Assembly (NCBI GenBank): GCA_037441385.1 | Contig: JBBISH010000003.1 | Location: forward strand, 47,192-111,191 | DNA: 64,000 nt | Direction: 5' to 3' | Origin: Myxococcales bacterium | Lineage (GTDB): Bacteria; Myxococcota_A; UBA9042 | Shown here: positions 8,182-50,225 of the stretch, one piece after another | How the letters are laid out: every line of letters starts with the position of its first letter | How positions within the stretch are numbered: the stretch's first letter is position 1 | Translations under genes and position numbers: made by a program | The notes under the pieces: model-generated | The model's database searches: none | What the model saw: only the letters and a program-made list of their open reading frames with translations | Told to the model about the DNA's origin: nothing

Positions 8182-9246
8182 AAAATGCGTCACCTTTCGA
8201 TGTCGTTGACGGTCGCCCTGGCCGCGTTGGCGCTGGCTCCGGCCTGCAAGAAAGAGCAACCCGCCGAGGCGCCCAAGACCGAAGCCCCCAAGGCCGAAGA
8301 GCCCAAGCCGGCGGATCTGCCCAAGCCCGCCAGCCCGGCCGCCATGCCTGGTGCCGCGGGCGCGGCCGCGATGCCCGGCGCCGTCAGCGCCACTTCGGCG
8401 ATGGAAGGCCCCTGCCCGCTGCCCGGCGAGGACCCGGCTTCGTGCCCGGCCAAGCCTGCCACCGTCGACGACGACATCAAGATCGCCCATGTGCTGATCG
8501 GTTGGGACGGCTCGCTGCCCGGCAAGAAGGCCGGCCGCGACGAAGCCGGCGCCCAAAAGCTCGCCCAGGAAGTGGCCCACAAGGCCCGCACGCAAGGTGC
8601 GGACTTCGTCAAGCTGATCTGGGAATTCAGCCAGGATCCTGGCCCAGGCATCTACGAGGTGACCCCGCCGATGCGCCGCCGCTTTGTGCCCGAGTTCACC
8701 GCCATGGCGCTGTCTTTGGGCGTCAATCAGGTCGACATCGCCAAGACCCGCTTTGGCTTCCACGTGATGAAGCGGATGCCCTTCGACTTCGTCGCGCCCG
8801 AGAAGCCACTGGTCGCGGTGATGAAGGACCCCTGCCCGGCCGAGGGTGAGGATCAGGCCGCCTGCCCCAGCAAGCAGGATCCCAAGCCGACCGAAGTCGA
8901 GGTCACCCACATCCTGATCGCCTACCAGGGCGCGATGCGCTCGACCGCCACCCGCACCAAGGAAGAGGCGGAAAAGCTGGCGATCCAGCTGTGTCACGAC
9001 GCGCGCAAGAAGGGCGCCGACTTCGCCAAGATCAAGGAAGCCGCCAAGTCGGACGATCCCGGCCCGGGCACCTACCCGGTCAGCAAGGACTCGCCGATGG
9101 TGGCGCCGTTCAAGCAACTGGCGCTGTCGCTGGGCGTGGGCCAGGTCGACGTGGTCGAGAGCGACTTTGGCTACCATGTCATGAAGCGCGGCGCGGCGGC
9201 CCCCGCTGCCGGCGGCGCGGACCTTGAGGCCAAGCCAAAGAAATAG
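8182..9246 (+). CDS. Parvulin-type peptidyl-prolyl cis-trans isomerase lipoprotein, two PpiC domains
   Basis: Start MRHLSMSLTVALAALALAPAC (lipobox) with GAGGA RBS. Two rotamase-domain repeats (…HVLIGWDG…FGFHVMKR… and …HILIAYQG…FGYHVMKR…). Confidence 0.8.
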   Translation, partial: KMRHLSMSLTVALAALALAPACKKEQPAEAPKTEAPKAEEPKPADLPKPASPAAMPGAAGAAAMPGAVSATSAMEGPCPLPGEDPASCPAKPATVDDDIKIAHVLIGWDGSLPGKKAGRDEAGAQKLAQEVAHKARTQGADFVKLIWEFSQDPGPGIYEVTPPMRRRFVPEFTAMALSLGVNQVDIAKTRFGFHVMKRMPFDFVAPEKPLVAVMKDPCPAEGEDQAACPSKQDPKPTEVEVTHILIAYQGAMRSTATRTKEEAEKLAIQLCHDARKKGADFAKIKEAAKSDDPGPGTYPVSKDSPMVAPFKQLALSLGVGQVDVVESDFGYHVMKRGAAAPAAGGADLEAKPKK

Positions 9247-9265
9247 TCCGACCAAGGAGCGCGTC

Positions 9266-10312
9266 ATGGTGGTTGCGTGGCAAGACGAACTCGACGCGGT
9301 GCGCGATCGCTGGGTCGCCGCCGCCGCCCAGGTGCCCGACTTGGCCGGCCTGCGGTCGCTGGAAGTGGAAGCGCTGGGCAAGCAAGGCGAAGTGACCCTG
9401 CTGGTCCGCAAAGTGGGCACCATTCCGCCTGAGGATCGGCGGGCCTACGGCGCGGCCGCAGCGGCCGTGAAAGGCCAGGTCGAGCAGGCCGTCGAAGCGC
9501 GCCGCCAAGGCCTGGAACGGGCCGAAGTCGAAGCGGAACTCGCCGATGACAGCTTTGACGAGACCGTGCCGGCCCACGCTGCCTTGGGGCGAGCGGCTCG
9601 CATGGGCCACAGCCACCCGCTCAGCCAAGTGCAGGCCGAAGTGGAGGCCGTGTTCACCTCGATGGGCTTCCACGTACTCGACTACCCCGAAGTCGAGAGC
9701 GAATTCGACAACTTCGAAGCCCTGAACATCCCGGCCTGGCACCCTGCGCGCGAGATGCAGGACACGTTTTGGCTCGAGGGCGGGCATTTGCTGCGCACCC
9801 ACACCTCATCGGGTCAAGTGCGGGCGATGCACGCGTTCCGGCCGCCGTTCCGGGCGATTTTCCCTGGCAAGGTCTACCGTTACGAGGCCACCGACGCGAG
9901 CCACGAGCACACCTTCCATCAGCTGGAGGGCCTGCTCATCGACCGCCACGTGTCGGTGGGCCACCTGCTCGACTCGATGCGCACGTTGCTGTCGGCGATC
10001 CTCAAACGCGACGTGGAAGTCCGTTTGCGGCCAGGCTATTTCCCGTTCGTGGAGCCGGGCTTCGAGCTCGATGTCCAGTGTCAGTTGTGCGGCGGCACGG
10101 GGTGCTCGGCGTGCAAGCAGTCCGGCTGGCTCGAATTGCTGCCGTGCGGGCTGGTGCACCCGCAAGTCCTGCGCGCCGGCGGCCTGGATCCGGCCGAATG
10201 GCAGGGCTGGGCCTTTGGCCTGGGCCTGTCGCGGCTGGTGATGATGCGCTTCCAAGTACCCGACGTCCGACTGCTTTTGTCGGGCGATCTCCGGTGGCTA
10301 AGCCAGTTCTGA
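9266..10312 (+). CDS. pheS: Phenylalanine--tRNA ligase alpha subunit
   Basis: AAGGAG RBS. Class II aaRS motifs (…FRPPFRAIFPGKVYR…, …FPFVEPGFELDV…GWLELLPCGLVHP…). Confidence 0.95.
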   Translation: MVVAWQDELDAVRDRWVAAAAQVPDLAGLRSLEVEALGKQGEVTLLVRKVGTIPPEDRRAYGAAAAAVKGQVEQAVEARRQGLERAEVEAELADDSFDETVPAHAALGRAARMGHSHPLSQVQAEVEAVFTSMGFHVLDYPEVESEFDNFEALNIPAWHPAREMQDTFWLEGGHLLRTHTSSGQVRAMHAFRPPFRAIFPGKVYRYEATDASHEHTFHQLEGLLIDRHVSVGHLLDSMRTLLSAILKRDVEVRLRPGYFPFVEPGFELDVQCQLCGGTGCSACKQSGWLELLPCGLVHPQVLRAGGLDPAEWQGWAFGLGLSRLVMMRFQVPDVRLLLSGDLRWLSQF

Positions 10313-10351
10313 ATACGCCAACCATAGGCCGCGCAGGCCGGCAGGTCGACC

Positions 10352-13021
10352 ATGATCGTCTCCTGGAAGTGGATTTCGCAGTGGGTCGACACCCAGGGCG
10401 TCGATCCCCTTGAGTTCGCCAAGCGTTTTACCTGCACGGTCGCCGAGATCGACGGCGTGCACCGCTGGGGCCACGGCCTGCGGGGCGTGCTGGTCGGCGA
10501 CGTGATCGGCGTCGCGCCCCACCCCAATGCCGACAAACTCCGCCTAGCGACGGTGGATCTGGGCAGTCGCCAGGTGCAGGTGGTGTGCGGCGCGCCGGAC
10601 CTGCGGCTGGGGATGCGCGTGCCGTTCGTGCCGCCGGGGATCAAGTTGCCGTCGGGCATCGAGGTCCGCGACGGAGAGGTGCGCGGCATCAAGTCGCCGG
10701 GCATGCTGGCATCCGAGGCGGATCTGGGCCTGAGCGACGACCACGGCGGGCTGCTGTCGCTGGACGGCGTGCACGCCCCGGCGGGCACCGACCTCACGCA
10801 AGCGGTCGATATCGAAGACGTCTTGTACGAGGTCGACAACAAGTCGATCACCCACCGCCCGGACCTGTGGGGCCAGTACGGTGTGGCGCGCGAAGTGGCG
10901 GCGATGCTGAACAAGCCGCTGCAGCCTTTGGATCTTCGGGTGAATTTGGCTGCGGGCGCGCCGGTCGACGTGGCGGTAGAGACGCCGCTGTGCCCTCGCT
11001 ATTGCTGTGCCCGCGTCGCCGGGGTGACCACGGCGCCGTCGCCGGTGGGCCTGCGCCTGCTGCTGCGGCGGCTGGGGGTGCGGCCGATCAGCAATGTGGT
11101 CGACGCAACCAACCTGGTGATGCTCGAGACGGGCAACCCGTTGCACGCCTTTGACGCGCGCTACGTCCGCGGCAACCAGATTCGCGTGCGGGCGGCGCGG
11201 CCGGGCGAAGTCGTCCGCACGCTGGACGGCCAGGATCGCAGCTTGGTGCCCGCGGATCTGGTGATCGCCGACGGCGAAGGTCCAGTGGCGCTGGCGGGCG
11301 TGATGGGCGGCGGCGACTCCGAGATCCGCGAGGATACGCGCGAGATCATCTTGGAGGCCGCGGCCTTCGACGCGGCGACCGTGCGCAAGACCGCGATGCG
11401 TGTCGGTCTGCGCACCGAGTCCTCGGCCCGCTTCGAGAAAGCGCTGGATCCCGAGCTGGCGCACACGGCGGCGCTGCGCTTCTTGCGGACGCTGCTGGAT
11501 CTTTGCCCGGGTGCGCAGGTCGCAAGCGAGCTGCTGGACGCGGGCGACTTTGCCCGGCAGCGGCCGCCCACGCGCGTCATCGTCAGTCATTGCGACTACC
11601 TGCGGTCGCGCTTGGGCGTCAATAAGACCGAGATGCCAGACGCGTGGATCGTCCACTGCTTGCGCAGCCTTGAGTTTGGCGTCGATCCGCAGCCCAGCGG
11701 CGAATTGGCCGTGCGCGTGCCTACCTACCGCGCCACCAAAGACATCCATCACGCCGAAGACTTGGTCGAAGAGCTGGGACGCCACTACGGCTACCACCGC
11801 ATCGCCAGCCAGGCGCCGCTGATCCCGTCGCGGCCAGCCTACACGCCGGGGACGCGCCTGGCCGAGCGCAAGATTCGCGCGGCGCTGACGCTGCAGCAAG
11901 GCCTGTGCGAAGTGCTGCTCTATGGGTTTGACCACGATGGCCAGCGTCAACGCTTGAGCCTGGCCGAGCCGGGTCTGGGCCGGATGGCCGTGCGCAACGC
12001 CATTTCGCGCGATCAGGGTACGCTCCGCCGCAACTTGGCGCCCAACCTGATCGCCGCGGTGGAGCAGAACCTGCTTCGCGGCGATGGCAAAGAGGCCCCG
12101 CGCGAGGGTTTTGTCGTAGGGCTGTTCGAGTTGGGGCGCGTGTTTGTGCCCGTGGCCGGGCGCACGCTGCCGCAGGCCGAGCGCGATGCGCTGGATCTGG
12201 GCTTGCCCGATCTGGCCAGCGAGCCCGACCACGATCCATTGCGTCAGGCTTGGCTGGGCCGCTTGGGTCCAGAAATGCAGGCGGCGGTCCGCGGCGTGCT
12301 GGCGGCGGACAACCCGCTACCATTGCAACCGATTCGCTTGGGCATCGCGATCGGCGAACGCTTGGGCGGCGGCGCCGAAGGGGCCAAGCGCACGCGTCCG
12401 CAAAAGGCCGTGAGCCAGCGCGTCTTTGCCGAGGCGGTGGCGGCGGTACAGAGCGCGGCGCGGGCCTTGGGCAAGGCCGAGCTGAGCGTGTCGGCGGCGG
12501 TGGCAGGGACCGACACCGAGCAACTGCCGGCGGCGGCTCCGGATTGGGCAACGACTTGGCGGCACCCGCAGCGCTGCGGCTGGCTGCGCGGGGCCAACAG
12601 CGCAGTGGTGGGCCTGGTCACGCTGCTGCATCCCGACGTGCGCCACGCCCTGGATGTGCCGGCCGAGGTGGCCGTAGCCGAGCTGAACCTGGAAGCGCTG
12701 CTGGCGCTCCCCGACGCGCCGGTCAGCGGTCAAGCGCCGGCACGCCATCCGGGTGCCAGCGTCGATTTGACCGTGCCTGTGGCCGCCAGCATTCGCCAAG
12801 CGTGGGTCTGCGCGGCGGTCTTGGCGGACTTGCAGGCGGCGAACTTGCCCGCTGTGGCTGTCCGCTACCTGTACGAGTACGAAGCACCGGGCGGCGCGCG
12901 CAGCATAACCCTGCGCGTAGACTGCCGAACTAGCGAGCGCAGCCTGACCTCGGCCGAGCTGGAGGCCGTCTTGGCCGCCGCCCGCCTCAGCGCCGGGCAG
13001 CACGGGCGGAGCGCATCATGA
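10352..13021 (+). CDS. pheT: Phenylalanine--tRNA ligase beta subunit
   Basis: Canonical N-terminus MIVSWKWISQWVD; has tRNA-binding, B3/B4, B5 and FDX-ACB-like regions; lies immediately after pheS. Confidence 0.95.
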   Translation: MIVSWKWISQWVDTQGVDPLEFAKRFTCTVAEIDGVHRWGHGLRGVLVGDVIGVAPHPNADKLRLATVDLGSRQVQVVCGAPDLRLGMRVPFVPPGIKLPSGIEVRDGEVRGIKSPGMLASEADLGLSDDHGGLLSLDGVHAPAGTDLTQAVDIEDVLYEVDNKSITHRPDLWGQYGVAREVAAMLNKPLQPLDLRVNLAAGAPVDVAVETPLCPRYCCARVAGVTTAPSPVGLRLLLRRLGVRPISNVVDATNLVMLETGNPLHAFDARYVRGNQIRVRAARPGEVVRTLDGQDRSLVPADLVIADGEGPVALAGVMGGGDSEIREDTREIILEAAAFDAATVRKTAMRVGLRTESSARFEKALDPELAHTAALRFLRTLLDLCPGAQVASELLDAGDFARQRPPTRVIVSHCDYLRSRLGVNKTEMPDAWIVHCLRSLEFGVDPQPSGELAVRVPTYRATKDIHHAEDLVEELGRHYGYHRIASQAPLIPSRPAYTPGTRLAERKIRAALTLQQGLCEVLLYGFDHDGQRQRLSLAEPGLGRMAVRNAISRDQGTLRRNLAPNLIAAVEQNLLRGDGKEAPREGFVVGLFELGRVFVPVAGRTLPQAERDALDLGLPDLASEPDHDPLRQAWLGRLGPEMQAAVRGVLAADNPLPLQPIRLGIAIGERLGGGAEGAKRTRPQKAVSQRVFAEAVAAVQSAARALGKAELSVSAAVAGTDTEQLPAAAPDWATTWRHPQRCGWLRGANSAVVGLVTLLHPDVRHALDVPAEVAVAELNLEALLALPDAPVSGQAPARHPGASVDLTVPVAASIRQAWVCAAVLADLQAANLPAVAVRYLYEYEAPGGARSITLRVDCRTSERSLTSAELEAVLAAARLSAGQHGRSAS

Positions 13022-21036: not shown

Positions 21037-22284
21037 TTACTGATTCATACCGTCGAGGAACTGCTGATTCGTCTCGTACTTGCGAATCTTGTCCAGCAGG
21101 AATTCCATCGAGTCGATCACGTTCAGCGGGTGTAGCAACTGGCGGAGCAGCCACACACGGTTCAGGGTCCGCTCGTCGAACAGCAGATCTTCCTTGCGGG
21201 TGCCGGACTTGTTGATGTCCAAGCAGGGGAAGATGCGCTTCTCCATCAGCTTGCGATCCAGGTGGATTTCGCAGTTGCCGGTGCCCTTGAACTCTTCGAA
21301 GATCACTTCGTCCATGCGCGAGCCGGTGTCGATCAGCGCGGTACCGATGATCGTCAGCGAGCCGCCCTCTTCGATGTTGCGCGCGGCGCCAAAGAAGCGC
21401 TTGGGCTTGTGCAGCGCGTTGGAGTCCACACCGCCCGACAGGATCTTGCCGCTGGGCGGAACCACGGTGTTGTAGGCGCGCGCCAGGCGGGTGATCGAGT
21501 CGAGCAGGATCACCACGTCGCGGCCGTGTTCGACCAGGCGCTTGGCCTTTTCGATCACCATCTCGGCCACTTGCACGTGACGGCTGGCGGGCTCGTCAAA
21601 CGTCGAGCTGACCACTTCGCCCTGAACGGTGCGCTGCATGTCCGTCACTTCTTCCGGACGCTCGTCGATCAGCAGCACGATCAGGTAGATCTCTTTGTGG
21701 TTGGTGGCGATGGCGTGCGCCAGCTCCTGCAGCAGCACCGTCTTGCCGGTGCGCGGCGGGGCGACGATCAGCGTGCGCTGGCCCTTGCCCTGCGGGCACA
21801 TCAGGTCGACGATGCGCGTCGTGAAGCTTTTGGGGTGGTATTCCAGGCGCATGCGCTCGCTAGGGTACAGCGGCGTCAGGTTGTCGAACAGGATCTTGTT
21901 CTTGGCAACCTCGGGATCTTCGAAGTTGATCTCATCGACCTTGAGCAGCGCGAAGTAGCGCTCGCCTTCGCGGGGCGGCCGAATCTCGCCGCGGACCGTG
22001 TCGCCATTGCGCAGGCCAAAGCGGCGGATCTGGCTGGGCGAGACGTAGATGTCGTCGCTGCCCGGGAAGTAGTTGTAATCCGGCGAGCGCAGGAAGCCGT
22101 AGCCGTCGGGCAGGACTTGCAGCACGCCTTCGGAGTAGATCGCGCCTTCGCGGTTGGTCTGCGCCGTGAGCAGGCTGAAGATCAGGTCCTGGCGGTGCAT
22201 GCTGGCGGCGTCTTCGATGCCGAATTCATTGGCCATTCCAACGAGTTCGGCCATTTTCATATGCTTGAGATCAATCAGATTCAT
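21037..22284 (-). CDS. rho: Transcription termination factor Rho
   Basis: Rho N-terminal domain, CSD-like RNA-binding domain and P-loop (…[12 protein letters not shown]…), Q and R loops. It is preceded by a leader of about 320 nt, as is typical for rho. Confidence 0.97.
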
Positions 22285-45006: not shown

Positions 45007-45947
45007 GCGATTTCGTGCGCGGCGAGCGCCGCTCGTCTCGTCCCCTGATTCCCGTGCCCGACACCACGGCCGGCACATTGGAGCTGGTGCGGCGCCTGGG
45101 ATACACGTTTGCCGACCCCAGCTTGCTCGAGGCTTCGTTGACCCATCCGTCGTGGCACAACGAGCATCCCGAGGCCGTGTCCGACAACCAGCGCCACGAG
45201 TTTTTAGGCGACGCCGTGGTTGGCCTGGTGATCACCGAGGCGTTGCTCGAGCGCATGCCCGATCGGCGCGAAGGCCAACTGACCGTGCTGAAATCGCAGT
45301 TGGTGCGCGAGTCGGCACTGGCCGAACTGGCGCAAGCCCTGGGCATCGGCGGCGCGCTGCGCTTGGGCCGCGGCGAAGACTACACCGGCGGGCGCCGGCG
45401 AACTTCCGTGTTGGCCGACGCGTTCGAGGCGGTGGTGGGCGCCGTGTTCGTCGATGGCGGCTATGCTGCAGCGCGCGAGGTGGTGCGGCGCCTGTTCGAC
45501 GACCTGCTCGACGCCGCGGCTGCTGCGGTGGCCGAGCTGGGTGCGACGCCCACGGCGTTGTCGGCCGGCGTAGCCAATTGGAAGACGGCGGTGCAAGAAC
45601 TGCTGCAGCAGCACGCGAACCTGCCGCCGACCTACGCGGTGGTCGACGAGCAAGGTCCTTTCCACGCGCGGACTTTTGTGGTGCAAGCGACCGCGCGGGC
45701 GGCCGGCGAAAAGGGTGAGGTCGAATTGGTGGGCGTGGGGCGCGGTCCCAGCAAGAAGCTGGCCGAACACGCCGCCGCGTCGGACCTGTACCAGCGCGTT
45801 CTGACCCATGTGAACAACGCCGACCCCACCTTGGCCGCGCTGTTGCAGGCGCCCGTGACCCGCCCCTCGGGTCTGCGCGCTCGCCCGCTCGCGTTGGGCG
45901 ACGTCAAGAAGGCGCCTGACGATGATTCCGATGGCGCGTCCCCATGA
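45003..45947 (+). CDS. rnc: Ribonuclease III
   Basis: ATGA overlap with mnmA. RNase III signature [17 protein letters not shown]; C-terminal dsRBD (…[12 protein letters not shown]…[17 protein letters not shown]…). Confidence 0.95.
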
Positions 45948-46083
45948 TATCGGCTACTCTTGGGGGATTGGCGCCGCGCGGCCGCGTACACAAACCGGGC
46001 CACGCAGGCGGGGAGCGAAGATGTTGAGCCTGAATTGGATTGCGATTGGTGTAGGCGCGGGCCGCCTTGAGGTGCGACAGGCC

Positions 46084-46305
46084 ATGTTGGGTACCTGGGA
46101 AATCATTGCTATTTTGGCGGTCGTCGTGCTCCTGTTCGGCGCGAACAAGCTGCCCCAGCTGGGCAAGGGCCTGGGCGAAGCCATCGGCAACTTCAAGAAG
46201 GCGCAGCGCGAAGGCGAAAAGGGCGTGCTGCACGACGAGATCGATGCGACGCCGCGGGTCGAGGCTGAGCGCAAGAAGAGCCTGGATCGCGACGAGCACG
46301 CCTAG
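46084..46305 (+). CDS. tatA: Twin-arginine translocase subunit TatA/E
   Basis: 73 aa. N-terminal TM plus hinge (…[36 protein letters not shown]…), then acidic/basic tail. Confidence 0.85.
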
Positions 46306-46362
46306 AGACCTGACCAATTACGGTACACTCGTTCAGTTCTTGGATGTTCTGGTCAGGTCTCT
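46304..46362 (+). terminator. Perfect 13-bp inverted repeat (AGAGACCTGACCA / TGGTCAGGTCTCT) with 33-nt AT-richer loop, overlapping the tatA stop; no U-tract
   Basis: Read directly from the sequence. Possible tatA terminator or protein/RNA recognition hairpin. Confidence 0.35.
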
Positions 46363-46626
46363 CGCTGCTAGGTGGGTCGCAAGCTCGCCCCGTTGGGGAC
46401 TCGCCGCTCCAATTGCAGCGGGTCCGGCGCGGCGAAGAACTCAAATTGATGCGCTCTCTAGAACACGGATCCATTTAGACTTTCTCCGCGCAGCCGAACC
46501 GTCGAATTCGGCGCGGTCAATCGCAGCCGGCGCGCACGCACAGGGCTTTGGCGTATCCGACCTGCGGATCGCGGACGCCGGCCGCCGCCCGCGCACAACC
46601 CCAACCACAGGCAGGTACGGCGCCGC

Positions 46627-46670
46627 AAAAACGCGCCGGGGCTGCTCAGGCAAGGACCTGGCAACCCCGG
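46627..46670 (-). terminator. Intrinsic terminator of the MC1-like gene (CCGGGG/CCCCGG stem followed on the minus strand by a U5 tract)
   Basis: On the + strand the sequence reads AAAAA-CGCG-CCGGGG-N23-CCCCGG, i.e. a hairpin plus U-run for a minus-strand transcript ending about 25 nt after the stop at 46693. Confidence 0.55.
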
Positions 46671-46692
46671 ATCGTTGTGCGATGGGCAGCGA

Positions 46693-46965
46693 CTACTTCA
46701 GGTGCTCGACGCCGACCTTCTTGACGGTGGCCTTCCAGACCTTGGCGGGCAGCCACTTTGGGCGATTGGCGGGAGCCGTGGTCTCGACGCGGCCGCCGTT
46801 GAACACGTGCACGCGCTTGGTGCCGCGCTCGCGCAGGCGAATCTCGGTGTAGCCGCGGGCCGCAGCCTTCAGGGCCGCGCCGCGCGGTTGGGCGTTCGAG
46901 AAGACCACGTTGGTGTCCTTGCCTTCCTGCATCAATACGAAATTCTTCTTCTCTTTCTCTGCCAT
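46693..46965 (-). CDS. Chromosomal protein MC1-family DNA-binding protein (archaeal chromatin protein homologue)
   Basis: 90 aa. …NFVLMQEGKD…VFSNAQPRGAALKAAARGYTEIRLRERGTKRVHVFNG… closely matches my recollection of Methanosarcina MC1 (…FVLRDE…GVFTGKQPRQAALKAANRG…IRLRERGTKKVHVF…), recalled from memory and not aligned. Start verified on the minus strand; a longer ORF-track extension is Arg-rich junk. Confidence 0.75.
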   Translation of the reverse strand: MAEKEKKNFVLMQEGKDTNVVFSNAQPRGAALKAAARGYTEIRLRERGTKRVHVFNGGRVETTAPANRPKWLPAKVWKATVKKVGVEHLK

Positions 46966-47329
46966 GATCCAGCTCCCCCCGGATTGCAGCAGCCGGGTGC
47001 CAACCGCACGAGCGGTGCGGTCGTCGTCGGTGCGCCGCGAGCCTGGCCTCTCCAGCCTCGACGGACGAACCCCTATTGGCTCGAATCGGCGACCTGCGCC
47101 GCGGTCGTGCCCTGGCGGTGGCGTCTGCACCGGCCGCCGACCTGGCGCCCTCCGTGCAAAACCCGTGACCGTGTCGCTTCCCGCGGTTGCCCGCCGGCAG
47201 CTCCTCTGTCGCACCACTCACTTGTCGGCAGGTATGGGCCGGTTTTCGTCGTTATGCAAGCGGCAAGCGCGGCGGCAACGCCAGGTGACGATAATTCCGC
47301 TGAAGTTGGCCGCGCGGCAAATTATGCCG

Positions 47330-47361
47330 TTGACAGGCGAGTGCGATTGAGTATCTATATA
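47330..47361 (+). promoter_or_regulatory. Sigma70-like promoter candidate in an AT-rich island (TTGACA-N16-TATCTA / TATATA) between the divergent MC1 and slt genes
   Basis: Perfect -35 hexamer TTGACA at 47330-47335. AT-rich -10 candidates lie at 47352-47361 in an otherwise very GC-rich window. Confidence 0.4.
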
Positions 47362-47434
47362 TTTCAACGCGTTATATGTAGAGCGTCTGCAGTTCAACGA
47401 TTTGGCGGCGCGGCGCGAGCGGCGATTTCCCCAT

Positions 47435-47467
47435 GATCACGGTACGCGAGGGCCGTGATCGTTTTTT
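47435..47467 (+). terminator. Rho-independent terminator / attenuator hairpin GATCACGG-N10-CCGTGATC followed by T6
   Basis: Perfect 8-bp stem plus TTTTTT, about 75-100 nt downstream of the promoter candidate and 255 nt upstream of the slt start. It overlaps the first codons of the spurious ORF-track start at 47433. Confidence 0.5.
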
Positions 47468-47723
47468 GCTGGTCGCGCACAGAATCGCCGGGCGCGGCCC
47501 GCGGTATGGGCCCATTTTGCGTACACCAGCCGGGCGCCGCTCGCCAACGCGCTTGGGACTTCGCCTGATTATTCAGCAGTTGCAAACGGCTCGCGAACTG
47601 GTCAAGTCCGACAATCGTGCTACCGTAGCGGCACGGCAGCATGCAAGCCCTGGCGTGGCGAGCAAGGTGGTGTGGGTGGGCCAGCACAGGGCGAACGCAA
47701 CCAGGGGAGCAGCCGCGTGGCCA

Positions 47724-50225
47724 ATGTGGGCTGCGGTGGGGATCCTGCTTTGGCACGCGGCCGCGACACCGGCTTGGGCGGTGGCTGCGCACGCGCGGGC
47801 CAAGAGTGGCAAGACAGCGGCCGCCAAGGCCGTGCCAACCAAGGCAGCCAAGCCGGCGAGTGCAAAGGGGAAGCCGGCCACTAGCAAGACGTCTGGCGGC
47901 GCGACTGCCAAGAACTCGGGCACAAAGCCGAAACCAGGCAAGGCCAAGGCGGCGGGGAGCGGCAAAAAGGTCAAGGCCGGCAAGACCAAGACGCCCAAAG
48001 TCCCGGCGCACGCGGCGCGAGTGGTGCCCAGCCAAAAACGCAGCCAAGACGGTCGGTCGCACCACGACCACCGCGCCAAATGGGCGCAATTGCACGAACT
48101 GATTCAGCGCTTTCGCGTTGGGGCGTTGGCGGGACTAGACGGCAAGTTGCGCGGCCTGATCGACGGCGCCCAAGGCGATGTGGCACTGGCGGGTTCGCTG
48201 GTGCTGGCACGCACGCAAGCGAGCCTTCGGACTGGTGATCTTGGTGTCCAGGCCTTGGAGGACGCCAAGCCGCTGCGCCAAGCCCTGCCGGCCAGTTGGG
48301 ACTGGGCCCAGATCGAGGTGGACTACGCTGCCGGTCATTTCGGCCAAGCCCTGGAGCACATGCGCGAGTTCCGTAAACAATACGGTGATTTTCGCTGGGC
48401 GGCCGCCGATCTTCTTTATAGCCGGCTTGCCGAGCGGGTCGCGCCCCCCCAAGAGGTCGCGGAGATTGCCCTGGCGCTCTACGAGAAATCGGCGCTGCAC
48501 CTGCCCCGCGACGAGCTGCTGGCGCGCGCGGCCCGGGCCAGCGAGCAGATCGCCGGCCCCAAAGCCATGGGACTATGGCGAAAACTGCTTCTGCAACACC
48601 CAGAGAGCGAGTTCGTCGCCGAAGCCGCGAGCCACGTTGACGTGTCAACCTTGACCGACCCCGAGAACTACGACCGCATGGCGTTGCTGTTTGCGCGCCG
48701 CGCGTACGAGCGCTGCCGCGAGGTCGGAAAGCCCTTGTGGTTCAAGGGATATCGGCTAAGCGAGGTGGGCTACTACCTGGGCAAGATCGGCTCGGAGCGG
48801 CTGCGCGACGACTACCCGGGGGCGGCGGACTACTTGCAGGCGGCCAGTGTGGTCGACGCTCCCCATGCGGCCGCAGCCCTGTCGTCGTATGCCCTGGTGC
48901 TGGGCAAGCTGGGGCGTTTTGACGAGTCGATCGCCAAGTACGACGAATGGCTGCAGCGCTACCCCGCGGTGGGCAACGAGCGCCGGGTCGAACTGCACTA
49001 CGATCGCGCCCGCATGCTGCACGTTTCGGGCAAAAGCCTGCAGGCGGCCGAGGACATGGCCAAGGCGCTCGCGGCCGATGATCGCGGGATCGACGTGGGC
49101 AAGTATCAGTGGTTCGTAGGCTTTTGGTACTACCTGGGCAAGGACTACGGCCGCGCGCTCGAAGCGATGAAACCGCTGCTGGCCAACCCCAACCCGCTGG
49201 TGGGCGGCAAGGCCAACTACTGGACGGCCAAGGCCCTGGATCGCCTGGACCGCCGCGACGAGGCGGTGACGACACTGGACGGGCTGCTGCGGCGCTACCC
49301 CCTGACCTACTACAGCGCCTTGGGCGAGCGGCTCTTGGTCGATTGGGGCAAGGTCGATCACGTGCCCAAAGCTCAGGATTTCTCAAAGGTGATCGATGCC
49401 GCGCCCGATCCGTTTGCCGATCTGGCCGCCGATCCGCAGCTGGACCAGTTGCGCCTGGCCTGCGCGGTGGGCGAGCCCGACAGTTGCCAAGTCGCTTGGG
49501 ACGCGGCCGAAAAGAACCTGCGCAAGCTGCTGGGCGACGACGCGGTGCAAAAACTCCAACGCGAACTGGCCGACCCGCTCGAGCGCTACGCCGATGCGCG
49601 CGAAGAGGCGCTGCGGCAGAACGGCCATGTTTTGCTCAAGTTGCCCACGACCCAGACGCTGGCGGACTGGCGTGCCATCTACCCGCGCGCGTTTGCCACC
49701 CATACGGCCGCGGCAGCCAAGCGGTCGGGCGCGCCCGAGTGGATGATCTACGCCCACATGCTGCAGGAATCGCGCTACAAACCCTGGCTGATCTCGGGGG
49801 CGCCCGCGTACGGGCTGCTGGAGCTGCTGGACCGCACGGCCGCGCGCCTGGCCAAAGAGGCGGGCGACGACTACCAGCTGTGGATGCTGATGCAGCCGCG
49901 CTACAACATCGCGTGGGGCGGCCGCTATCTGGGCGCACTTTATCACAAATTCCACAAGCAGCTGCCGTTCGCCATCGCCAGCTACAACGGCGGGCCAATG
50001 CTGATGGAGTACCACCTGGGTGTGCAAAAGCGACTGCGGCGCGATTTTGACGAACTGATCGACGACCTGGGCCCGCACGAAAGCCGCAATTACGTGCGCA
50101 TGGTCATCGGCTGGTTCTTGCGGTACTTGGCGATCTACGAGAGCCCGAAACGGGCCGCCGAACTGCGCGACGAGCTTCTGCCGCGGCAGTGGTCAGCGGA
50201 ATTTGAACCCGAACCGAATTACTGA
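47724..50225 (+). CDS. slt: Soluble lytic murein transglycosylase (Slt70-like) with Lys/Ala/Pro-rich N-terminal region
   Basis: Signal peptide MWAAVGILLWHAAATPAWA. Lys/Ala-rich segment (AKSGKTAAAKAVPTKAAKPASAKGKPATSK…), superhelical repeat region, and C-terminal SLT domain with catalytic Glu …YAHMLQESRYKP…AIASYNGGP…. Confidence 0.8.
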   Translation: MWAAVGILLWHAAATPAWAVAAHARAKSGKTAAAKAVPTKAAKPASAKGKPATSKTSGGATAKNSGTKPKPGKAKAAGSGKKVKAGKTKTPKVPAHAARVVPSQKRSQDGRSHHDHRAKWAQLHELIQRFRVGALAGLDGKLRGLIDGAQGDVALAGSLVLARTQASLRTGDLGVQALEDAKPLRQALPASWDWAQIEVDYAAGHFGQALEHMREFRKQYGDFRWAAADLLYSRLAERVAPPQEVAEIALALYEKSALHLPRDELLARAARASEQIAGPKAMGLWRKLLLQHPESEFVAEAASHVDVSTLTDPENYDRMALLFARRAYERCREVGKPLWFKGYRLSEVGYYLGKIGSERLRDDYPGAADYLQAASVVDAPHAAAALSSYALVLGKLGRFDESIAKYDEWLQRYPAVGNERRVELHYDRARMLHVSGKSLQAAEDMAKALAADDRGIDVGKYQWFVGFWYYLGKDYGRALEAMKPLLANPNPLVGGKANYWTAKALDRLDRRDEAVTTLDGLLRRYPLTYYSALGERLLVDWGKVDHVPKAQDFSKVIDAAPDPFADLAADPQLDQLRLACAVGEPDSCQVAWDAAEKNLRKLLGDDAVQKLQRELADPLERYADAREEALRQNGHVLLKLPTTQTLADWRAIYPRAFATHTAAAAKRSGAPEWMIYAHMLQESRYKPWLISGAPAYGLLELLDRTAARLAKEAGDDYQLWMLMQPRYNIAWGGRYLGALYHKFHKQLPFAIASYNGGPMLMEYHLGVQKRLRRDFDELIDDLGPHESRNYVRMVIGWFLRYLAIYESPKRAAELRDELLPRQWSAEFEPEPNY

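Follow-up and report, generated by a model that had tools for sequence, protein, structure and literature searches.

The usual DNA benders of bacteria, HU and IHF, are small, basic, and abundant proteins that bend DNA sharply via minor-groove contacts. They act as dimers whose proline-tipped arms are inserted from outside the bend, and their fold is unrelated to that of MC1. [quoted passage not shown] In this protein, P72, W74, and M75 of the LP5 arm and K85, K86, R88, and I89 of strand 5 contact the minor groove, and R25 neutralises phosphates, with its exchange for alanine or glutamine (R25A/Q) costing more than 100-fold in affinity (PMC3928310). [quoted passage not shown]

MC1 was still termed archaea-specific in a 2025 Methanosarcina preprint (bioRxiv 10.1101/2025.11.24.690127). 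Our literature search found no study of a bacterial MC1 beyond a one-line mention, in which Aravind's group states that some bacteria can have MC1 alongside HU (PMC5499826). Here, we describe an MC1 gene on a bacterial contig and compare it with its bacterial and archaeal relatives.

The predicted MC1 protein and its DNA-contact residues

The window, i.e. the complete 64-kb stretch of DNA analysed here, has a GC content of 67% and contains on its reverse strand a coding sequence (46693..46965) for a protein of 90 amino acids (MAEKEKKNFVLMQEGKDTNVVFSNAQPRGAALKAAARGYTEIRLRERGTKRVHVFNGGRVETTAPANRPKWLPAKVWKATVKKVGVEHLK), closed by a TAG stop codon at 46693-46695. The initial annotation had noted a close resemblance of this product to Methanosarcina MC1, quoting three peptides and a matching size. 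All three peptides are found in the translation, and the length of 90 aa compares well with the 93 aa of M. thermophila MC1. The product matches positions 1-95 of the 96 positions in the Pfam profile PF05854 (MC1) with an E-value of 1.1e-28 and 99.8 bits (cutoff 23), and a sequence search retrieved the M. thermophila MC1 chains of the PDB (1t23/2khl/2nbj) with an E-value of 9.3e-19. With matches this strong, the resemblance is real and beyond chance. The protein is also small, single-domain, and strongly basic, as expected for the MC1 family, with a predicted mass of 10.1 kDa, a pI of 10.66, and 20 lysine and arginine vs. 8 aspartate and glutamate residues. Judged from these comparisons, it is a bacterial member of the MC1 family, and among the family characteristics checked, an archaeal host is the only one that it lacks. 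MC1 customarily has a euryarchaeal host, which is a matter of taxonomic habit and not a structural criterion.

Two other readings of this sequence were discarded. A longer ORF of 174 aa starting from GTG 47217 is at odds with the length of the homologues (87-99 aa), and the ATG and its Shine-Dalgarno sequence are conserved, whereas the sequence upstream of them is not. A Pfam match of the 90-aa product to Endonuclease_NS was weak (E = 0.017) and fell under the cutoff. No NCBIfam model was matched in a search with the 90-aa product.

The window protein is ~50% identical to M. thermophila MC1, with which it shares the size, the basic charge, and the single domain and, in the predicted structure, the order of secondary structure elements. 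It differs in its bacterial host and in the LP3 loop, which is 6 residues shorter. The equivalents of Q23, P24, R25, P72, W74, P76, and K85/K86 are conserved, and the exchanges relative to M. thermophila include K22 to Ala, M75 to Leu, R88 to Gly, and I89 to Val. In the alignment, R25, P72, W74, M75, and K85/K86 correspond to R28, P69, W71, L72, and K82/K83 of the window protein, and R88 and I89 to G85 and V86. R28, P69, W71, and K83 are invariant in an alignment of 34 bacterial and archaeal sequences. By this alignment, the DNA-contact residues of MC1 are retained in the window protein, including those assigned to DNA binding and bending, with M to L and I to V as conservative swaps.

MC1 proteins are characterised by a preference for bent or distorted DNA and by a pseudo-barrel fold, built from strands 1-2, a helix, and strands 3-5, with the LP5 arm between strands 4 and 5. 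An AlphaFold model of the 90-aa protein (pLDDT 92.3) has the order strand-strand-helix-strand-strand-strand published for MC1. A Foldseek search of the model against the PDB returned no match; thus, family membership rests on sequence. In the viral structure library BFVD, the best matches of the model were giant-virus proteins with TM scores of 0.6-0.79. Among them are a Faunusvirus protein with the annotation "Chromosomal protein MC1 domain-containing", Pandoravirus neocaledonia A0A2U7UBS8, and three M1I/M1H entries. These matches indicate that the predicted MC1 fold is also present in Nucleocytoviricota. Compared with the window protein, the giant-virus MC1-domain proteins (Pandoravirus, chlorovirus-type entries, and Faunusvirus) are far more divergent in sequence, with 18-34% identity and E-values down to 3e-5, and some are parts of longer proteins.

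Gene neighbourhood and candidate transcription signals

Downstream, the MC1 gene faces a convergent tatA gene (46084..46305, forward strand; Pfam TatA_B_E, PF02416, E = 9e-18), and its divergent upstream neighbour encodes a lytic transglycosylase with an SLT domain and TPR (slt; 47724..50225, forward strand; Pfam SLT, E = 5e-15). The Pfam scan of the neighbours agrees with the stand-alone position described in the initial annotation, and in this arrangement the MC1 gene is necessarily monocistronic. Further neighbours identified by Pfam are an RNase III with dsRBD, MnmA, and a class-V aminotransferase. Judged by TatA, the SLT transglycosylase, the bacterial-type RNase III, and MnmA on the contig, the host is bacterial, and the record titles of the relatives name Myxococcales, Myxococcota, or Deltaproteobacteria. 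Elsewhere in the window, from their N-terminal sequences, we take the region at 21037-22284 (reverse strand) to be rho and that at 9224-13021 (forward strand) to be pheS/pheT. No tRNA, rRNA, or Rfam-recognised RNA was found in the 64-kb window (Rfam at gathering thresholds).

Among related loci (numbered L001 onwards), L001 and L002, the closest relatives, are the only ones with tatA next to MC1. The convergent spacer between the two genes measures 387 nt in the window, 576 nt in L001, and 145 nt in L002, and its length is thus not conserved. Directly after the tatA stop codon lies an inverted repeat (GAGACCTGACCA ... TGGTCAGGTCTC; 46304-46362, forward strand) with 12-bp arms and a loop of ~34 nt, which is not followed by a T-run.

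On the other side, the slt ORF (930 aa) is open from 47433, with a GC3 of 0.68 in 47433-47723 vs. 0.81 in the body, and a start candidate at 47724 has GGGGAG upstream and opens a signal-peptide-like sequence (MWAAVGILLW). The segment 47433-47723 is probably non-coding and the real start located near 47724, which gives a divergent slt-MC1 spacer of ~758 nt. The leader or promoter region of slt would then comprise ~290 nt, within which a block at 47540-47660 is conserved in L001 and L002.

This spacer also contains two copies of a palindrome ((A/G)TGATCAC and GTGATC(A/G)N; 47433-47468, forward strand), 12-14 nt apart. The pair is also found in L001 (5508-5534), L004 (5522-5547), L005 (5515-5540), and L006 (2561-2586), and is kept across these relatives despite unalignable flanks. 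In the window, it is followed by T6 and was called terminator-like by the scan, and the first copy includes the ATG at 47433 with which the long slt ORF begins. Elsewhere in the window, GTGATCAC occurs in 3 copies vs. 0.74 expected. As each copy is itself palindromic, the arrangement suggests a pair of putative operators for a dimeric transcription factor and not an RNA hairpin.

The MC1 start codon is preceded at a distance of 7 nt by a Shine-Dalgarno sequence (GGAG; 46973..46976, reverse strand), and GGAG or GAGG is found at equivalent spacing in all 14 slt-linked relatives listed. A candidate promoter lies ~265 nt upstream of the ATG (47231..47259, reverse strand) and consists of TTGCAT (47254-47259), a 17-nt spacer, and CATACC (47231-47236). 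Boxes of the form TTGC(A/G)N-N16-18-NATA(C/T)N are located upstream of MC1, at -99 to -312 from the ATG, in the window and in 12 of the 14 slt-linked loci, and this promoter-like box recurs although the flanking sequence is unalignable between loci. The -10-like hexamer CATACC resembles TATAAT only poorly, and a strict sigma-70 promoter scan of 45800-47800 reported no site, the TTGCAT-N17-CATACC box included. We consider this box a putative MC1 promoter, from which the position of the transcription start is deduced; it would give rise to a 5' untranslated leader of ~259 nt (46966..47224, reverse strand). The fold of the leader (about 259-266 nt) is no more stable than that of shuffled sequences (z = -1.0), and an Rfam search of 45800-47800 at E <= 1 produced no match, also within the leader.

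Divergent promoters had been predicted in an AT-rich island upstream of the gene. An AT-richer stretch is indeed present (47200-47399, 54.5% GC vs. 67% for the window), but the MC1 candidate is located at its gene-proximal edge and not in the AT-richest core. A candidate slt promoter, TTGACA-N16-TATCTA at 47330-47357 (forward strand), is oriented towards slt in the AT-richest part of the spacer; this element is not clearly conserved in L001-L003.

At the other end of the gene, an intrinsic-terminator-like element at 46627..46670 (reverse strand), already pointed out in the initial annotation, was recovered in the same place. It is composed of a 15-bp bulged hairpin (46636-46670) that starts 22 nt past the MC1 stop codon, followed by CGCG and a U5 run (46627-46631). 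In the minimum-free-energy fold, CGCG lengthens the stem by two pairs, up to the U-run, and the 50 nt preceding the U-run fold with ~-30 kcal/mol; for the 101-nt terminator region, the fold has a z-score of only -2.08. A generic terminator scan of 45800-47800 did not call the hairpin, because the U-run sits 4 nt from the core stem. L001 and L002 keep the hairpin, with a compensatory change from G-C to A-U, and non-homologous elements of a hairpin and a T-run follow the MC1 stop codon in L004, L005, L006, L008, L009, and L010. Overall, a hairpin terminator is present after MC1 in 9 of the 11 bacterial loci examined. In the window, transcription would be expected to terminate at this hairpin, with its U-run of only five residues.

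Distribution and origin of bacterial MC1

The MC1 family is small, with 1039 clusters at 90% identity in a word-indexed search and 254 clusters at 50% identity in an exhaustive search among 1.84 billion representatives. Close relatives of the window protein are already named "chromosomal protein MC1 [Myxococcales bacterium]" and similar in MAG entries at NCBI, and a protein search starting from a divergent bacterial MC1 yielded no cultured or named species. The divergent slt-MC1 pair is found in ten loci from a species-dereplicated genome collection (L001-L010) and in four more distinct metagenomic loci (L026, L030, L034, and L041), i.e. in 14 distinct related loci beyond the window, with an MC1 identity of 72-99%. 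Within L001-L010, the MC1 proteins are 74-99% identical, whereas Slt reaches merely 51-79%. One of these loci (L009, CAYHHL010000236.1) is titled "uncultured Enterobacteriaceae bacterium"; its GC content of 65.5% and its esterase-slt-MC1 order, which is that of the Myxococcota-labelled MAGs, indicate that this label is almost certainly wrong. Other high-GC bacterial MC1 loci lack slt and have the gene beside hybrid kinases, TPR proteins, HtrA, or RmuC. Taken together, the bacterial carriers of MC1 are aquatic and uncultured, are mostly labelled as Myxococcota, and fall into one coherent clade. Apart from them, the family is overwhelmingly archaeal; the bacterial members, initially described as sporadic, are not random singletons.

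The nearest non-bacterial kin of the window protein, with 63-69% identity, are the MC1 proteins of marine Group II (MG-II; Poseidoniales/Thalassarchaeaceae) and related planktonic archaea. Unlike the window, the MG-II loci have archaeal contexts (Hjc, CDC48) and mostly a low GC content, with values of 33-46% at many marine loci, and the arm reads ASAPxWLK in the MG-II loci L014/L015 vs. ANRPKWLP in the bacteria. The protein cluster P0242 belongs to Poseidoniaceae, and P0106 (CDC48 context) and P0117 (Hjc context), both ~67% identical to the window protein, are archaeal. The contexts of the latter two rule out that the top 120 homologues are all bacterial, and an identity below ~70% does not by itself separate bacterial from archaeal MC1. 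Two longer predicted proteins, P0243 (293 aa) and P0251 (282 aa), carry the MC1 domain C-terminal to a region of ~200 residues, which we presume to be AMMECR1-like from its appearance; they could be true fusions or merged gene calls.

In a bootstrapped neighbour-joining (NJ) tree of labelled sequences with about 90 columns, bacterial and archaeal MC1 are split with 81% bootstrap support. Bacteria and MG-II-type archaea are together set apart from Methanosarcina, Halobacteria, and another archaeon (97% bootstrap), and they share the LP3 loop shortened by 6 residues and the QPRGAALKAA motif. For MG-II, a gain of MC1 by horizontal transfer was inferred previously (Hocher et al. 2022, PMC7613761). 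The sequences suggest one old inter-domain transfer as the simplest reading, with the NJ tree of ~90 columns giving no direction. MG-II could also have received the gene from the bacteria; this would account for MG-II being isolated among the Diaforarchaea in having MC1. Horizontal acquisition, as initially proposed, is therefore supported as an old event only, since which the gene has fully ameliorated and been inherited vertically in this lineage, and the nearest archaeal kin are of the MG-II type rather than Methanosarcina.

Proposed role and alternative explanations

We propose, with a probability of roughly 80%, that the gene encodes a functional, monocistronic bacterial MC1 that acts as a DNA-bending nucleoid protein and represents either an acquisition of old date that is now fully domesticated or an old shared gene, inherited vertically in the clade. 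Transcription would start at the sigma-70-family-like box ~265 nt upstream of the ATG and produce a transcript that has a strong Shine-Dalgarno sequence behind a long leader and would end at the hairpin and U5 run 22 nt past the stop codon. The 10-kDa monomer with its pI of 10.7 would bind sharply bent DNA from the concave face, where the hydrophobic arm (P69, W71, and L72) and the last strand (K82, K83, G85, and V86) would enter the minor groove, and R28 would neutralise the phosphates drawn together by the bend. The Leu in place of M75, the Ala in place of K22, and the shorter LP3 loop count against this reading. By analogy, a DNA-bending, nucleoid-associated role is most likely for the window MC1, which may compact or protect the DNA in a manner resembling that of HU/IHF.

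The position of such a gene in a bacterium could alternatively have other causes. An assembly or binning artefact, in which a piece of archaeal DNA had been fused to a bacterial contig, might be suspected as the relatives all come from metagenome assemblies and the "Enterobacteriaceae" title of L009 is clearly wrong. However, groundwater, Baikal, other lakes, and marine samples yielded the same gene order independently of each other, the composition along the window has no break at the MC1 gene, and marine archaeal loci with MC1 mostly have 33-48% GC vs. 67% here, making an artefact barely conceivable. The gene might also have arrived recently as a transferred passenger, or be a pseudogene-like insertion in decay, without a role in the host; this would fit the otherwise overwhelmingly archaeal family and the location of the gene amid long non-coding spacers between convergent and divergent neighbours. 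This explanation is highly improbable, since the gene is indistinguishable from the host in GC3 (0.879 vs. 0.79-0.88 in the neighbours) and codon usage (ranking 3rd of 32 genes in conformity to the window bulk, next to the presumed rho), its dN/dS against ten relatives is 0.03-0.26, and its position beside slt is repeated in the 14 distinct loci. Furthermore, no integrase or repeat linked to the gene was found, searches of phage genomes and IMG/VR viral contigs with MC1 retrieved no relative, and a plasmid search matched haloarchaeal megaplasmids only (37-39% identity). Host-like codons, dN/dS, synteny, and the even composition together indicate an old, vertically inherited gene under strong constraint. 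Recent insertion, pseudogene, and assembly chimera can thus all be dismissed for the MC1 gene. The initial annotation had called it functional, naming a recent pseudogene-like insertion as the contrary case; the former view is supported by these data and the conserved Shine-Dalgarno sequence, and the latter is disfavoured.

A more serious alternative, though still an unlikely one, is that the MC1-fold protein mainly regulates transcription at preferred sequences and has a limited regulon, of which slt is one possible target. Such a role is proposed for the MC1b paralogue of M. acetivorans, where the two MC1 paralogues differ and loss of mc1b changes ~10% of genes, with a promoter motif, while mc1a, by contrast, looks like a compaction factor (bioRxiv 10.1101/2025.11.24.690127). 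The conservation of the divergent slt-MC1 pairing in 14 distinct loci beyond the window and the conserved palindromes in the shared 758-nt intergenic region are also compatible with a regulator. On the other hand, the codon usage, one of the best-adapted in the window, and the strong Shine-Dalgarno sequence fit high expression, as would be expected if the protein were abundant. The unrelated neighbours at the other bacterial MC1 loci (hybrid kinases, TPR proteins, HtrA, and RmuC) show that the link to slt is lineage synteny and no general rule. Moreover, monomeric MC1 prefers an asymmetric site, whereas the palindromes are of the classic dimer type. We thus favour the nucleoid-associated DNA bender over a dedicated regulator.

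Public annotation already labels bacterial MC1, and the present data add no new protein family or mechanism. New here are a coherent bacterial MC1 clade, the conserved locus and transcription signals, and the grouping with MG-II MC1. We can only tentatively suggest, as a possibility with the odds against it, that MC1 is a core nucleoid protein throughout the clade, fixed after a single ancient exchange with MG-II ancestors. In the uncultured planktonic and groundwater Myxococcota-type clade, MC1 might take over part of the HU/IHF role. In Thermoplasma, the histone has been replaced by HU; if true, MC1 in place of HU/IHF would be the bacterial counterpart of this replacement. A bacterial clade in which MC1 holds a fixed place in the chromosome and is subject to strong purifying selection thereby offers a testable case of inter-domain exchange of chromatin components, and a candidate for studying how a monomeric archaeal-type DNA bender may coexist with, or substitute for, HU/IHF in a bacterium.
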